Assembly: GCA_011321815.1 (NCBI GenBank)
Contig: DROS01000026.1
Location: 54-64,053 of the forward strand
Direction of reading: 5' to 3'
From: Gammaproteobacteria bacterium
Lineage (GTDB): Bacteria > Pseudomonadota > Gammaproteobacteria > SZUA-152
Length of the DNA: 64,000 bases
Shown here: piece by piece, positions 55,296-62,666 of the stretch
Numbering within the stretch: the stretch's first letter is position 1
Layout: each line of letters opens with the position of its first letter
Position numbers and translations under genes: made by a program
The notes under the pieces: generated by a model
What the model was told of the DNA's origin: nothing
Seen by the model: the letters and a program-made list of their open reading frames with translations, nothing else
The model's database searches: none

Positions 55296-57581
55296 ATGGC
55301 CAGGCAGTTTTCTCCGAGTATCAAATCACACAGTATGCTGACGTTTGGTTTTGCGTTATTGCTCGCTACGGTGGGGCTGCTGGTTTATGCATTACCGGGC
55401 GGTTTTGATCTGGAAGAAAATGTGGCGCTGGATTTTTTGTTCAAGCAGCGTTCACAGAGCCCTCCGCCGGATAATGTCATGCTGGTCTCTATCGACAAAA
55501 CAGCCGCACAACAATTGGGGCTGGATAATGACCCGGGAACCTGGCCGCGTGAATTGCACGCGCGTTTGATCGACCGGTTATCTGCGGCAGGGGCCGCAGT
55601 GATTGTCTTCGATGTGTTTTTCAGCCAATCCAAGACACCCGGGCACGATGCGCGTCTGGCGCAGGCCATGCGACAGGCGGGCAATGTTGTGATTTTTGCC
55701 AGGCTGCAACGTGAGAAACAGAGCCTGGAAGGCGGCGGTGAATATAACCTGGAACGTTTGCTTTTGCCGCTGCCCATGTTCCAGCAGGCTGCGGCTGCCT
55801 ATGCCCCCTTTGCCTTGCCCAAAGTACCCATCAAGGTTAACCAGTTCTGGGCTTTTCACACCTCGGCCGGTGGTCACCCTTCATTGCCGACTGTGGCCCT
55901 GGAACATTATGTGGCGCAGGATCATGGAGCGTTATTTGACATTCTGGCCAGGGTTTCCCCGCAGCAGGCAGCCGTATTGCAGGCATCCCTTGAGGGTCGA
56001 TTCCGACGTGAGCGCATCGCGCAGATACGGGCTTTTTTAAAACAACAAACCGTTACCACCCAAGCCATGCTGGAAACATTGCGTGAGTCCGCAGGGCCGG
56101 TGACTGACCCGGAAACCAACCGGCGTCTTCAGGCCTTGCTTACGGTGTATCTCGGGCCGGAGCGTCGCTATCTGAATTTTTACGGGCCGCCGCGCAGCAT
56201 TCCTACGTGGTCTTATGGTGAAGTGCTGTCTGCGACAACGGAGCAGCTTGCCCCTTTTTTCAAAGGCAAGGTTGTGTTTGTCGGTTTTTCCGAAGAGCGC
56301 CAGCCGGAGCAAAAAGACAATTTTTACACAGTGTTTTCTCAAACCAACGGGCTGGACCTAAGTGGTGTGGAGATTGCCGCCACCGCCTTTGCCAATCTTG
56401 CGGCACCGTTGTCAACGTCCATTCTGACATCTCTTGCAGATCCTTTTCTAGCGCAACAAAGCCTGCGTCTGCCGGAACCGGCGGTCTATGCCGCCATCAT
56501 CATCGGCTTCGGCTTATTGCTGGCCTGCCTGGGCAGGCTGTCCAGCGCCAGCGCATTTGTGCTCCTGAGTCTGTTCACTGCCGGACTGTATACGCTGATC
56601 AGCCTGCAATTATTTGCCCGTTCAGCAATCTGGTTACCACTCTTTGTTCCGGTTTTGCTGCAGACACCGCTGGCATTGTTTATCGGGCTTTTATGGCGCT
56701 ATCGACAGCTTAACCGTGAGCGTAGCCGGATTCGTCAAGCCTTTGGTTATTATCTGCCCGACCATGTGGTTGAAAATCTGGCGCGCAGCTCTCAACACCT
56801 GAGAGCCCTGAGTGAGCGCATGTTTGGTGTGTGCATGGCAACGGATGCCGCGCAATACACCCGGCTGGCTGAATCACTGACACCCGAAGCCCTCAATACT
56901 TATATGAATGATTATTACGAACGCCTGTTTAAACCGGTGCGCGTGCGTGGTGGCATTATTTCTGATGTGGTGGGCGATGCGATGCTGGCAATCTGGTCTG
57001 CGCATCAAGAGGAAGGCAGCCTACGTCGGCGGGCTTGTGAAGCGGCCCTGGAGGCATTGCGTGTCGGGCAGGAGTCTGCACCTGACTCCGATCTACAGAC
57101 GCGCATTGGTTTGCACGCAGGTGAAATCATGCTGGGAAACATTGGTGCCCTGGACCACTACGAATACCGTGCTGTAGGCGATATCGTCAATACCGCCTCG
57201 CGTATCGAAGGACTCAACAAACAGCTCGGCACCACCCTGCTGGTTTCTGATGCAGTGCTTTCGGGGCTGGATGGTTTTATCAGTCGCGAACTGGGTGCAT
57301 TCCGCATGGCTGGTAAACAAAAAGCCATTGTGATTCATGAATTGCTGGGCTGGCAGGAAGACGGTGATCAACAGCAACATTATTTATGTGAGTGTTTTGC
57401 TGAGGGACTGTACGCTTATCAGCGGCATGACTGGCAGGCCGCAATGGATTGTTTTCAGCGGGCGTTTGAATTCTCGCCGGGGGACGGCCCCAGTCGTTAC
57501 TATCTTGAACGCTGTAAATTGCATGAGCAAAAAATGCTGCCCCTGCCGCAGGATGGAGTGATTGTGATGCAGAAAAAATAG
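55296..57581 (+). CDS. CHASE2-sensor class III nucleotide cyclase with C-terminal TPR-like tail
   Basis: LVSID...WPRELHA, VIVFDVFF, SGVEIAA, 3 TM, cyclase GDAML and GDIVNTASRIEG. Confidence 0.92.
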   Translation: MARQFSPSIKSHSMLTFGFALLLATVGLLVYALPGGFDLEENVALDFLFKQRSQSPPPDNVMLVSIDKTAAQQLGLDNDPGTWPRELHARLIDRLSAAGAAVIVFDVFFSQSKTPGHDARLAQAMRQAGNVVIFARLQREKQSLEGGGEYNLERLLLPLPMFQQAAAAYAPFALPKVPIKVNQFWAFHTSAGGHPSLPTVALEHYVAQDHGALFDILARVSPQQAAVLQASLEGRFRRERIAQIRAFLKQQTVTTQAMLETLRESAGPVTDPETNRRLQALLTVYLGPERRYLNFYGPPRSIPTWSYGEVLSATTEQLAPFFKGKVVFVGFSEERQPEQKDNFYTVFSQTNGLDLSGVEIAATAFANLAAPLSTSILTSLADPFLAQQSLRLPEPAVYAAIIIGFGLLLACLGRLSSASAFVLLSLFTAGLYTLISLQLFARSAIWLPLFVPVLLQTPLALFIGLLWRYRQLNRERSRIRQAFGYYLPDHVVENLARSSQHLRALSERMFGVCMATDAAQYTRLAESLTPEALNTYMNDYYERLFKPVRVRGGIISDVVGDAMLAIWSAHQEEGSLRRRACEAALEALRVGQESAPDSDLQTRIGLHAGEIMLGNIGALDHYEYRAVGDIVNTASRIEGLNKQLGTTLLVSDAVLSGLDGFISRELGAFRMAGKQKAIVIHELLGWQEDGDQQQHYLCECFAEGLYAYQRHDWQAAMDCFQRAFEFSPGDGPSRYYLERCKLHEQKMLPLPQDGVIVMQKK

Positions 57582-57957: not shown

Positions 57958-60900
57958 ATGAACAGGGTGAGTGTCTTGGGTCGTTTTGGTTCCGTTCGCT
58001 GTGGTTTGCTTTTACTACCGGTATATTTTTTTGCATCTGTGGCGATGGCAGAGGAATGCGCCGAAAAAATGGCCACGATCATCTCCATTCAGGGGACTGT
58101 GGAAAAGCGCCAGAAATCCGGCACAGTGTGGGAAAAAGTGACGGCACAAGATACCTTTTGTGTTAACGACATGGTGCGCACCCAGATGAACAGTCGCGCC
58201 GCACTTTATCTCAATAACAATTCCATATTACGTCTGAACGAACTGTCCACCGTTATCTTCACAGGCCCATCTTTACAGGATGCAAGCCGGCTGGATCTGA
58301 GAAAGGGCATTGCGCACTTTATCAGCCGTATCAAGCAACGCTTTGAAGTGCTGACCCCCTACGTTAATGCCGCCGTTGATGGCACAGAGTTTGTTGTTGC
58401 CGTCGATGCGGATCAAACCCGTGTCACCGTGCTCGAAGGCCGGGTACGGGTCAGCAATGAGCAGGGTGAAATCAACCTGACCCAAGGGGAAACCGCCTTG
58501 GCCCAGGCGAGAAAAGCCCCCGCTTTGCAAACACGGGTAAAGCCCTGGAACGAGGTAAGCTGGGCCTTGTATTACCCCGCAGTGAGTGATTTTTCCACAC
58601 TGGTGGTGGCTGCTGAAGAGCTGCCTGAACCATGGCGCGCCCGTTTGCTGCAATCCGTTGAACACTATCAGCTGGGGCGTGCATCAGCAGCGCTAACGGA
58701 ACTTGAAGCGTTACCGGACGATATCCTGAACGGCAACATCTACGTTTACCGCGCCGCGTTATATCTGGCGGCAGGTCAGGATGTGCAGGCCAGCATGGAC
58801 CTGGAGCGTGCATTGAAACGGGATGCTGGAAATGGAGAAGCCCTTGCACTCAAGTCTGTCATCGCCGTCACGCAAAACCGCGCTGACCAAGCTGTAACGC
58901 TGGCCCGGGAGGCCACCGATGCCAGTCCGAAAAGTGCCGCCACCTGGTTGGCTTATTCCTACGCGCAACAAGCCGTATTCGATCTGAAACAGGCTCGCCT
59001 CAGCGTCAAGCAGGCAGTAAGACTGGCGCCGGAAAATGCCCTGGCCTGGGCACGGCTGGCCGAACTCCACCTGATGTTTGGTGAGCTTGATCAGGCGCTG
59101 TGGGCAGCGCGGCGTGCGGCAGAAATTGCGCCCCGGTTGGCGCGCACGCAAAGTGTACTGGGATTTGCTTACCTGACACAGATTAAAATCGCGGCGGCAG
59201 AGCGGGCTTTTAATCAGGCCATCAAACTTGATCAGGCGGCCCCCTTGCCCCGGCTAGGGTTGGGACTGGCGATGATCCGTCGTGGCGAGCTGGCATCCGG
59301 ACGTCGCCAGATCGAAATCGCCGCCAGTCTGGCCCCGGCAAATTCGTTGATTCGCAGTTATCTGGGTAAAGCCTATTATGAGGAAAAACGTGGCCCACTG
59401 GATGCCACGCAATTTGCCATGGCCAAAGAGCTGGACCCCAATGACCCGACGCCGTGGTTTTATGATGCGATTCGCAAACAAACTGAAAATGATCCAGTTG
59501 GTGCGTTGCAGGATTTAAACAAGTCGATAGAACTTAACGATAATCGTGCGGTATATCGCTCGAGTTTCTTGCTGGACAGTGATGAGGCTGCGAGAAGCGT
59601 CAGCCAGTCCCGGATATACAAGGATCTTGGATTTGAACAGCGCTCCTTATTGGAAGGTTGGAGGTCTTTAATATACGACCCCAGCAATTATTCTGCGCAC
59701 CGGTTGTTGGCAGATTCGTATTCTAATTTACCCCAGCATGAAATTGCCCGTGTCAGTGAACTATTGCAATCCCAGTTATTACAGCCAATAAATGCAAATC
59801 CCATCCAGCCTCAACTCGCAGAAAGTAACTTGGGCATATTGGATGGGGCCGGGCCCTCTGGTCTTGGATTAAATGAATTTAATCCATTGTTCATTCGTAA
59901 CAGCGCCAGCGTTCAAATGGATTTCACAAACGGCAGCAATGGCACATCAGGTGACAGTTTAATACTTTCAGGTATTCAGAATGACTTCTCATTTAGTTTT
60001 GGGAAGTTTCGTTATGAAACCGATGGGTTTAGAGAAAATAATGACGCCGCATATGATATTTACAATTTTTTTGCTCAGGCACGGGTAAGTAACAGGGCAA
60101 ATATACAATTTGAATATAGGGATACTGAAAGAAATAACGGAGATGTCAGGGTTAACACTTTTAGACCCGAGTCATTTAAGCCTACCTTGCGTGAGCGCAC
60201 CGAGACCGATCTTTTTCGTGTTGGGTTGAATTATAAATTAAATCCAAATGCTGTTTTTCTGGCATCACTGGCGACCAACTCTGCTGATTTTGTTTCATCA
60301 GATTTCGAATCAGGCTTAACGCGGAATGATGAAGGTGACAGTGTCGAGTTGGTATATCTGGGCAACTATGCGACATTTAACACTGTTTCAGGAATCGGTT
60401 CATTTAAAGGCAGCACAAAAGATAAGCTTGTTTTGTATGAAGACCCTGCTATTTGCATATTAATTGGTGGGTGCGAAAAAAGCTCGGAAGAAACAATCAG
60501 ACATAACAATTTTTTCTTTTACGCTTATCTGGATTTGGATGATAAAGGCTCAAAAATCATCACAGGCTTGACCGTAAACGATGTAAAAAATGATCTTGAA
60601 AATGACAGTTTTGTAAATCCAAAGCTTGGTGCTATTATTAACATTAATCGTGATAACATTTTACGCTTTGCGGCATTTAAAACCACTAAAAGAGATTTGG
60701 TGAACAATCAGACTCTTGAACCAACTCAAATAGCAGGGTTCAACCAGTTTTTTGACGATTCAAAATCTGCCGAAAGCCGCTTGTATGGCATTGGGTATGA
60801 TACAAAGATGTCGGGTAGCACATATGCGGGACTAAATTACTATAATCGAACGATTGATTTTTCGTTTATAAATGGAGATGTAATAGATTCAGTGGAATGG

Positions 60901-61347
60901 ACAAGCAAAAACGGTGGGTTATACGTTTATAGTCAGCTTGATGATAATTTTAATTTCAGTGCTGAGTTTCAATTTGACCGGTTTGAGGCGCCAACGGAAT
61001 TTAATACGGGAATTTTAGAGTTAAACACTTTTTTGGCCCCGGTTTCACTTCGTTACTTTAATTCAAATGGGTTATCAGCAAATATTACTGTGGTGCATGT
61101 GAATCAGGATGGAAAGTTCTTTGATTCGACTATTCCCCCATTTGGGGAGAAGGTAAATGACAACGATAACTTTATAATGACGAACGTGAGCATGGGTTAC
61201 CGGCTTCCAAAGCGATTGGGGATTTTGACCTTGGAAGTCAATAATTTAACAGATAAAAAATACAAATTTCAGGATATACAAGCTTCACCGGCTATCTTTT
61301 CGCCCGAAAGATATGTTATCGGGAAGTTTACTTTAAATCTGCAATAA
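57958..61347 (+). CDS. FecR-TPR-beta-barrel outer-membrane receptor (NsrA-like architecture)
   Basis: Signal peptide; FecR (VLTPYVNAAVDGTEF, TVLEGRV); many TPRs; amphipathic beta strands to the C-terminus. Confidence 0.85.
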   Translation: MNRVSVLGRFGSVRCGLLLLPVYFFASVAMAEECAEKMATIISIQGTVEKRQKSGTVWEKVTAQDTFCVNDMVRTQMNSRAALYLNNNSILRLNELSTVIFTGPSLQDASRLDLRKGIAHFISRIKQRFEVLTPYVNAAVDGTEFVVAVDADQTRVTVLEGRVRVSNEQGEINLTQGETALAQARKAPALQTRVKPWNEVSWALYYPAVSDFSTLVVAAEELPEPWRARLLQSVEHYQLGRASAALTELEALPDDILNGNIYVYRAALYLAAGQDVQASMDLERALKRDAGNGEALALKSVIAVTQNRADQAVTLAREATDASPKSAATWLAYSYAQQAVFDLKQARLSVKQAVRLAPENALAWARLAELHLMFGELDQALWAARRAAEIAPRLARTQSVLGFAYLTQIKIAAAERAFNQAIKLDQAAPLPRLGLGLAMIRRGELASGRRQIEIAASLAPANSLIRSYLGKAYYEEKRGPLDATQFAMAKELDPNDPTPWFYDAIRKQTENDPVGALQDLNKSIELNDNRAVYRSSFLLDSDEAARSVSQSRIYKDLGFEQRSLLEGWRSLIYDPSNYSAHRLLADSYSNLPQHEIARVSELLQSQLLQPINANPIQPQLAESNLGILDGAGPSGLGLNEFNPLFIRNSASVQMDFTNGSNGTSGDSLILSGIQNDFSFSFGKFRYETDGFRENNDAAYDIYNFFAQARVSNRANIQFEYRDTERNNGDVRVNTFRPESFKPTLRERTETDLFRVGLNYKLNPNAVFLASLATNSADFVSSDFESGLTRNDEGDSVELVYLGNYATFNTVSGIGSFKGSTKDKLVLYEDPAICILIGGCEKSSEETIRHNNFFFYAYLDLDDKGSKIITGLTVNDVKNDLENDSFVNPKLGAIININRDNILRFAAFKTTKRDLVNNQTLEPTQIAGFNQFFDDSKSAESRLYGIGYDTKMSGSTYAGLNYYNRTIDFSFINGDVIDSVEWTSKNGGLYVYSQLDDNFNFSAEFQFDRFEAPTEFNTGILELNTFLAPVSLRYFNSNGLSANITVVHVNQDGKFFDSTIPPFGEKVNDNDNFIMTNVSMGYRLPKRLGILTLEVNNLTDKKYKFQDIQASPAIFSPERYVIGKFTLNLQ

Positions 61348-61376
61348 CTGTTCTACTTATAACTGGAGGGATAATA

Positions 61377-61655
61377 ATGACTACAAAAGAGTGTGTTGCC
61401 ATGCGGTCTGATCTGAATGAAATTGTGCCTGATAACATGCAGGTTGGGATTTTTTATTTAGATGATGGAAGGATGATTGTCATAGATTCGCAGGGCACTG
61501 TTATTAAGCCTCATCAGGAGTGCGATTTATTCCCCCTGTGTGATGTAAAAGAGGTTGAAAAAATTGAATGTACAACAACAGTTACAGTGCGCGGTTCCCA
61601 CTATAAAGTTAAGAGAATCGGGGATAAATATTATAAAATTCCGCTGCCCCATTAA
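61377..61655 (+). CDS. Small Cys-containing hypothetical protein (92 aa)
   Basis: GGAGG RBS; 29 bp after the receptor; same AT-rich composition. Confidence 0.75.
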   Translation: MTTKECVAMRSDLNEIVPDNMQVGIFYLDDGRMIVIDSQGTVIKPHQECDLFPLCDVKEVEKIECTTTVTVRGSHYKVKRIGDKYYKIPLPH

Positions 61656-61843
61656 ATCAAATAAAGCGCACGCAACAGCGTATTTGTGCGCGAAACCCTG
61701 CTGGTGCTGACATAGTACGCTGGGTTGCTTTAACGCATTTATTGATTCCACATCGGGGGAAAATTGTCCCCCGATGTGGATGATGCCAAACCCCACAGCC
61801 AATCATGATGCCTAAAATGCATCATGATTTTTTGTGCGATGCC

Positions 61844-62329
61844 CTAACGGGTGAAATTAAACAGGAATCGTGTGATTTTCCATGTGTTGTCGTTTTTTTC
61901 CAGTACAAAAAACGCACGATAGGACTCAGTGGAAACCACTTTGCCTGTTTCCAGAATGTTAAGCTGGCCTTCCGAGCGAGTGCGGGCAAAGGCCATGTTT
62001 CCATTCTGTACCACTTCATCAAAAACAATGTTTACATCCAGGTCAATGATTTTGAATTCGTGTTCGTAAGCGGCTTTGATTTGCGTTAATCCTGTTGCCG
62101 TCGGTTTTCTTGCGGGCATAAATACCGCGTCTTTTGTGTACAGCGATAAAACACCGTCAACATCGGAGGCATTCATTGCCCTGCCATAAGCCAGGATCAC
62201 TTCTTTGATGTGTTGCGTTTCTGTGGCGGGAGTCTTTGTTTGGGTATTGGGTTGCGCATGGGCTGTGGTGCTTGCAATAGTTATGAATAGTGCGGAGGCC
62301 AGTAATACGGTTTTTGTGAGCGTTTGCAT
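61844..62329 (-). CDS. Exported SnoaL/NTF2-like (DUF4440) protein
   Basis: Signal peptide ending AHA; LYTKDAVFMP, WKITR. Confidence 0.85.
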   Translation of the reverse strand: MQTLTKTVLLASALFITIASTTAHAQPNTQTKTPATETQHIKEVILAYGRAMNASDVDGVLSLYTKDAVFMPARKPTATGLTQIKAAYEHEFKIIDLDVNIVFDEVVQNGNMAFARTRSEGQLNILETGKVVSTESYRAFFVLEKNDNTWKITRFLFNFTR

Positions 62330-62446: not shown

Positions 62447-62505
62447 CAGTGATGGGGAAATGACATGCAGCCTGATTTGAATGCTTTGTTTAATCGTTAT
62501 GGGTA

Positions 62506-62666
62506 TATACCTGTAGCGATTGAGATTTAGGTCTGATGGCATGCTCTGTTTGTCCCATAGCTGCATTGTTGTCCTTGCCATAGACCGGCTATTGCGCGTC
62601 ATTTTGCCTGGCCATGAAACAAATATGACGCACGCTTAAACCTAAATCCCAAACGTCTCGGGTATA
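62506..62666. repeat. 161-bp ERIC/MITE-like element
   Basis: TATACC...GGTATA ends; 27-bp terminal inverted repeats with 6 mismatches. Confidence 0.65.

Follow-up and report, generated by a model that had tools for sequence, protein, structure and literature searches.

The closest described relative of the system treated here is the NsrA - CyaK/CyaD1/CyaD2 - Clr pathway of Sinorhizobium meliloti, as presented in the covered portions of two reports (PMC7529298; PMC13001267). According to the portion of the first, NsrA senses a protein without a signal peptide, uL2, and raises cyclic adenosine monophosphate (cAMP) (PMC7529298). This plant ribosomal protein is the only ligand found in print for NsrA-like receptors. 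A related locus lies in a 64,000-nucleotide stretch (positions 54 to 64,053, hereafter the window) of contig DROS01000026.1 from the assembly GCA_011321815.1 of a gammaproteobacterium. There, an NsrA-like outer-membrane receptor of 1,129 amino acids (57958..61347, forward strand, as for all gene parts given below) follows a gene for a CHASE2-domain class III nucleotide cyclase and precedes an open reading frame (ORF) of 92 amino acids (61377..61655). Sequence comparisons indicate that related bacteria exchange the plug, the barrel and the small downstream gene together, as a single cassette; the product of the small gene, here called the partner, is a candidate ligand of its own barrel.

Like NsrA, the receptor unites FecR, TPR and beta-barrel in one secreted protein encoded beside a CHASE2 class III cyclase. 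In the S. meliloti record L040, the gene that precedes cyaK matches the profiles of the family (N-terminal half 1e-45, barrel 3e-9), and for this reason the receptor-cyclase core of the window is assigned, by sequence, to the NsrA type, a kind already known. In that record nsrA (L040:2284-5873) is unannotated and split over three frames, possibly by a sequencing error. NsrA differs in being a distant homologue only, with 24-28% identity in local pieces and no tblastn match in the plasmid collection, in having no partner gene at nsrA, and in its CyaK, which carries K/S at the specificity positions where the cyclase of the window carries D/R. The covered parts of the NsrA literature mention neither barrel exchange nor a linked partner family (PMC7529298, PMC13001267).

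The TonB-dependent transducers FecA-FecR-FecI and HasA-HasR have the 22-strand barrel fold and the FecR domain in common with the locus, and HasR binds a small secreted protein. In the window, however, a TPR rod fuses FecR to the receptor, the plug region consists of helices, and the neighbour is a cyclase and not an extracytoplasmic function sigma factor. Polymorphic cassettes such as the contact-dependent growth inhibition (CDI)/Rhs toxin-immunity loci and the staphylococcal agr system with its AgrD-AgrC pherotypes keep a constant 5' part and exchange, past a fixed junction, a variable 3' part together with a small cognate gene. The locus resembles them in its fixed junction and in its variable 3' module with a small gene, whereas its variable part is a membrane barrel instead of a toxin, its predicted output is a cyclic nucleotide, and its cassette holds no processing or export gene. 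The CHASE2 cyclase clusters of Campylobacterota encode FecR and TPR in separate genes and include a phosphodiesterase; a small partner or barrel exchange is not mentioned in the covered part of that report (PMC9239204). In the literature on CHASE2 or NsrA, which was covered without the original NsrA paper and without supplements, no partner family and no barrel exchange were found, and only the receptor-cyclase pair and one remark on a gene cluster turned up.

A sequence-only reading of the window had described the receptor as a mosaic, in which a host-like signalling half joins an AT-rich recognition half within one ORF. GC content at third codon positions (GC3) indeed drops from 0.57 to 0.36 inside the ORF 57958-61347, and the AT-richness continues, as described, through the small ORF (GC3 0.38). 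The change is best placed at codon 584 (nt 59710; 2-log-likelihood support 59452-59860), with a log-likelihood ratio of 25.2 compared with a maximum of 8.1 in 300 permutations, and a GC3 of 0.36 belongs to the lowest 2% of the 1,397 long ORFs of the genome. Amino-acid bias was rejected as the cause, since four-fold sites shift as well (0.65 to 0.38). An assembly chimera was also rejected, because two further studies have contigs that run across the junction, one (X2) over 59171-61799 with 5 differences and the other (X3) over 58365-60883 with 68. Lower GC3 in the barrel is a trend of the family, found in 85% of 134 receptors with a median difference of 0.07 (0.24 in the window, at least 0.15 in 31 of the 134). 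Thus, composition alone is no proof of a swap, and comparison with relatives is the real test.

The receptor occurs in 4 of 13 congeneric genomes as five copies, four of which share the ybaB-cyclase site of the window (ybaB, recR and dnaX are names that we presume for neighbouring genes). The N-terminal halves of the congener receptors are 81-88% identical to that of the window, whereas their barrels reach only 33-34%, with the exception of the copy G006:C197. Compared with G003, the share of identical codons at identical residues falls from 22/28 in the interval from amino acid 481 to 7/22 in that from amino acid 511, and a matching drop is seen against G007, G006:C179 and G009. The protein across this drop is still 52-88% conserved, so selection on loops offers no explanation. 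By these comparisons, the seam is a recombination junction that maps to about 35 nt at codons about 500-510 (59455..59490), where a vertically inherited N-terminal half meets the exchanged cassette.

Trees of the two receptor halves are incongruent. The N-terminal halves of the window and its congeners form one clade with 100/100 support, which the barrel alignment rejects in the approximately unbiased (AU) test (p-AU 6e-5), and barrel AU tests likewise reject the close N-half pairs L043+L050 (5e-13) and L034+L177 (2e-4). These trees hold 34 and 30 of about 180 rows, picked after a first tree had been seen; 4 duplicate barrels were removed, and L138, from the unpublished genome G070, entered none of the local analyses. 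That the barrels are orthologous and merely evolved fast was rejected on the synonymous drop together with the AU tests. The earlier proposal of an exchangeable recognition module on a conserved signalling half is therefore borne out by alike N-halves, unrelated barrels and synonymous identity that collapses at the junction. None of the three outcomes that the sequence-only reading had named as refuting turned up.

Four types of cassette were found behind near-identical N-terminal halves: the 92-amino-acid ORF of the window and G006:C197, a 147-amino-acid lipoprotein in G003, a 56-60-amino-acid peptide of another type in G007, G006:C179 and G009, and a 110-amino-acid ORF in the metagenome locus L177. 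Partners of 56-62 amino acids (L033:6309-6572, L034:641-811, L035:10055-10237, L037:1148-1336, L130:3750-3920) follow one barrel clade (100/100) also in two other families, three in all; they are rich in Tyr and Arg and do not match the hairpin profile. The last TPR repeats (amino acids 400-495), with 78-95% identity among congeners, likely serve as the homology arm for recombination. On the right, blastn likeness to G007 resumes at 61851, so the cassette ends before this position. Transposase-like genes lie directly 3' of the partner in two congener loci (L031:3858-6487, L035:10373-11504) and may represent a right-hand end of exchanges. DNA identity between the window and G006:C197 is 75-94% before about 59,180 and 88-100% after it, which by sequence is the mark of a recent transfer; the G006:C197 contig might be mis-binned, and the mosaic is unchanged by that. 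A donor of the window's barrel was not found, and the next best protein among the best 7,991 candidates reaches 38%.

From the N-terminus, the receptor consists of a signal peptide, a FecR domain within the conserved half (amino acids 72-164, 58171..58449; PF04773 5e-18), a TPR rod (about amino acids 260-499, 58738..59454), a conserved helical segment (about amino acids 543-648, 59584..59901) predicted at the plug position of TonB-dependent transporters (TBDTs), and a hypervariable, AT-rich barrel of 22 strands with a predicted TonB-dependent-receptor-like fold (amino acids 649-1128, 59902..61344). The model of amino acids 501-1129 gives helices followed by the 22 strands (predicted local distance difference test, pLDDT, 86.9; predicted template modelling score, pTM, 0.88), and its barrel resembles FpvA (Foldseek 1e-20) and PirA (Z 19.6, root-mean-square deviation 3.0, 407 residues aligned). 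PF00593 was matched in 39 of 67 receptor homologues and not in the window's own receptor. Structural alignments to TBDTs start at model residues 42-66, inside the TBDT plug, and the ranges of these alignments suggest that the helices take the place of the plug. A canonical mixed alpha/beta plug was not seen, as the model has nothing but helix and coil ahead of strand 1 and the Plug family was hit in 0 of 67 members. The motif CILIGGC, to which attention had been drawn, is present in predicted extracellular loop 5 (60454-60474). No more than 22 of 184 barrels have a Cys pair in the equivalent loop, and the loop was rejected as a family feature. NsrA-like receptors form at least 1,933 protein clusters at E<=1e-30, and 45 of 401 genomes of the class have a match (a tally that includes the window genome and the unpublished G070).

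The small ORF is preceded by a GGAGG ribosome-binding site (61365..61369), 7 nt 5' of its ATG. In line with the sequence-only reading, a hydrophobic signal peptide is not visible in it, and the expected four cysteines (6, 49, 55 and 65) and hairpin-like tail are there; none of the cysteines, however, falls into the terminal hairpin. This hairpin (61593..61652) follows a Gly-Ser turn and carries His75 and His92 at the usual Cys positions of the family. A profile of 30 partners, built without the window ORF and without its subclass, found the ORF at E 1.5e-4 among 2,126 segments. Compared with its twin in G006:C197, it has 7 synonymous and 1 non-synonymous differences, a ratio by which it is under purifying selection. 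A spurious ORF was rejected on profile match, ribosome-binding site and synonymous bias. A search with the single sequence returned the near-identical twin only.

The family comprises 229 clusters at E<=0.001, although a few of the top 150 are long repeat proteins, and its members are lipoproteins, secreted forms or signal-less. Among 68 members nothing exceeded the curated cut-offs of Pfam or NCBIfam. The model of the partner (pLDDT 81) shows an N-terminal hairpin and a C-terminal part of three strands; no fold match was found in the PDB and nothing usable in the Atlas, blanks that do not show a new fold. A PDB sequence hit of the family profile's hairpin to that of ribosomal protein L36 (E 0.37) is not significant and was rejected; it is mentioned only because the reported ligand of NsrA is a ribosomal protein. 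At the end of 117 of 139 family members stands a (G/N/S)(S/P) turn with a Cys-closed hairpin. In a Nitrosomonas locus, a full partner is immediately followed by a gene (L107:8213-8419) for no more than a signal peptide and a Cys hairpin, the latter very similar to that of the full partner; this suggests that the hairpin is the active part. At the partner position of L053, L055, L075, L081, L113, L153, L171, L223, L228 and others, secreted Cys-rich proteins of 230-360 amino acids were seen, several of which end in a similar turn-plus-Cys hairpin. Partners of L058, L060, L072, L080, L093 and L098 contain an internal Ala-x-Ala motif ahead of a Cys-rich tail, resembling a further site of processing.

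Partner and receptor are linked. In the 401 whole genomes, with the best 14 or fewer candidates per genome scored, all 19 hits of the partner profile lie directly behind a receptor, within about 1 kb (7 of them outside the training set of the profile), and the 356 genomes without a receptor match gave no hit. The iterated profile matched 69 of 176 receptor loci and 0 reversed decoys at E<0.01, training rows included, and an ORF with a Cys-pair tail stands behind 101 of 142 receptors compared with 19 of 136 control genes. As had been anticipated, homologous receptors are followed by small ORFs with a hairpin tail, here of the form (G/N)(S/P)...G..., and these ORFs vary together with the barrel. 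The partial rank correlation of partner with barrel given the N-half is 0.149 (0 of 499 permutations, n=84; L031 left out as a near-copy), compared with -0.02 for partner with N-half given the barrel (333 of 499 permutations, n=84); the permutation test overstates the correlation because the rows are kin. In a barrel-only tree, the window falls into a clade of nine (0.955; 92/80 in a further tree), all with the GS-H/PLP type of partner, and the N-halves of these nine are rejected as a clade (p-AU 3e-8). The eight best non-identical relatives of the window's partner belong to the same class, seven of them in its barrel clade. From these sequence data, partner type tracks barrel type and not the N-half, and the effect is modest. 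In tandem receptors, a different partner follows each copy, in some cases none that is recognised. Such arrays of two or three receptors were noted in L255 (G336:C149), L256 (G279:C362), L257, L097, L099, L107 and L119, mostly with an own small gene per copy and with one cyclase where it was seen.

The most likely reading of these data, to which we give about an even chance, is that the partner is the cognate ligand of its own barrel. It is favoured because NsrA senses an outside protein that has no signal peptide and because a hairpin may be encoded by itself after a signal peptide. A new cassette would enter by homologous recombination within the conserved last TPRs, and its barrel would thereby remain coupled to the FecR/TPR rod and the CHASE2 cyclase already in place. 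Once extracellular, the partner might, by analogy with NsrA, dock its C-terminal hairpin on the outer loops of the barrel, and the change might be relayed from plug to TPR, FecR and cyclase. The cyclase would then likely make a cyclic nucleotide, possibly cyclic guanosine monophosphate (cGMP), to be read by a Crp-type regulator. As the partner of the window has no signal peptide, it would leave the cell by lysis, in vesicles or by some other route.

Several observations weigh against a ligand. NsrA of S. meliloti responds to a plant protein, and no partner was matched next to its gene. In 107 of 176 receptor loci the profile gave no hit at E<0.01, though many of these loci carry other small or Cys-rich ORFs. 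By a crude rule, only 2 of 73 members of at most 100 amino acids have a hydrophobic N-terminus, which leaves the others with no obvious export route. The correlation is weak and its rows are related, and the best partner hit lies among the five nearest tree neighbours in 40 of 84 cases for the barrel tree and in 34 of 84 for the N-half tree. The 92/80 support of the window's barrel clade is below star on a long and compositionally odd branch, and L212, whose partner is closest to that of the window, stands outside this clade. A gene behind the junction also travels with the barrel even without binding it. Complex predictions of plug and barrel with the partner scored 0.00 in two runs, made with an uncertain partner fold and without controls, and are evidence neither way.

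The main rival, possible but in our estimate doubtful, makes the partner a metal- or redox-sensing co-receptor, whose hairpin pair (Cys/Cys, Cys/Sec or His/His) would bind a metal ion or switch its redox state; only one state would engage the barrel, much like a hemophore loading HasR. Cys, selenocysteine (Sec) and His interchange at metal sites. A set of 196 sequences contains 16 of the GSH type, the subclass of the window, and every one of them carries another His close to its C-terminus; in 142 of the 146 Cys-type sequences this place is taken by the second Cys. Four of 112 partners (L046, L166, L215 and L230) have a TGA at the place of the second Cys, with a single W or H between it and a stop, and this TGA might encode selenocysteine. 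The barrel with its TBDT fold would suit this reading too, in which the system, again doubtfully, reports chemistry and not cell identity. However, the His/His subclass is probably of single origin and would then count as one event, the last 28 residues of type-C partners are free of Cys, and it is hard to see why a chemical sensor should need so many unrelated barrel-partner types at the same site within a genus.

We think it unlikely that the partner is a resident accessory subunit of the barrel, namely an assembly factor, lid or periplasmic inhibitor, with a foreign molecule as the true signal; equally unlikely is the corollary that escape from phages or the sensing of new hosts drives the diversity of barrels. 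LptE for LptD and Llp for FhuA are models of such subunits. Among the 139 family hits shorter than 260 amino acids, a hydrophobic N-terminus is present in 57 and a lipobox-like motif in 26, the partner class closest to that of the window includes lipoproteins, and a one-to-one subunit accounts for the co-variation equally well. The window's copy and most short members, however, lack a signal peptide and so have no Sec route to the envelope, the lumen seems, from alignment ranges and model, to be filled by the receptor's own helices, and NsrA functions without such a gene. That the partner is a mere regulated output or passenger, co-transcribed and co-transferred without contact to the barrel, is very improbable: any gene between the junction and the next point of homology must move with the barrel and the sequence correlation is weak, but the family was found nowhere else in the genomes among the candidates scored, and each tandem receptor keeps its own partner.

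If the partner is a ligand, one might tentatively think of a polymorphic 'self-alarm' channel, in which a hairpin protein stored by each strain and released by lysis is detected only by cells with the matching barrel, where it would turn on signalling by a cyclic nucleotide. Just as tentatively, strains would change channel through barrel-plus-signal cassettes at a fixed point of the receptor, and, with no more confidence, tandem copies would provide several channels per cell in a system widespread in Gram-negative bacteria. With a self signal, this would be a polymorphic peptide system of the agr kind that uses an outer-membrane barrel, and with a metal or redox lid an unnamed family of Cys/Sec/His sensors. 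The partner is likely a matching signal or co-receptor of one sort or the other, and each strain would then have a sensing channel of its own. The locus itself contributes the His/His subclass and a recent transfer, besides a junction narrowed to about 35 nt and four cassette types on near-identical N-halves. The linked, co-varying small protein gives each receptor a concrete candidate ligand, and four natural cassettes on nearly one signalling half are a ready test of specificity.

The cyclase upstream of the receptor (761 amino acids, 55296..57581; Pfam CHASE2 3e-33, Guanylate_cyc 3e-12) is 82-83% identical to the cyclases of four congener loci. Both domains were found nearby in 31 of 37 loci with full flanks. 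In class III cyclases, the substrate is specified by certain residues, which in the cAMP type are Lys and Thr/Asp/Ser. The cyclase of the window has Asp and Arg at these positions, as read from its sequence, and D/R recurs in 20 of 25 neighbouring cyclases, compared with K/S in the CyaK of L040. D/R fits guanine better than adenine, possibly with cGMP as the product, which is not certain from these residues alone. The genome has 11 matches to cyclic-nucleotide-binding domains, 0 of them on the window's contig, and a Crp-like gene lies 3' of the partner in Nitrosomonas loci. Receptor and partner are each present as a single copy in the window genome.

Among the neighbours in the window (ybaB/recR-like, SnoaL, dnaX-like), no toxin domain and no dedicated gene for peptide processing or export was found. 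Scans for promoters and terminators gave results at chance level. Two inverted repeats lie between the partner and the convergent SnoaL gene (61744..61829), with a terminator-like site at 61801-61829, a kind of site whose number is not above chance. A dispersed repeat of ~160 bp at 62500-62666, similar to a miniature inverted-repeat transposable element (MITE) or a repetitive extragenic palindromic (REP) element, gives 56 blastn segments in the genome including itself, and another copy lies between cyclase and ybaB in G003.

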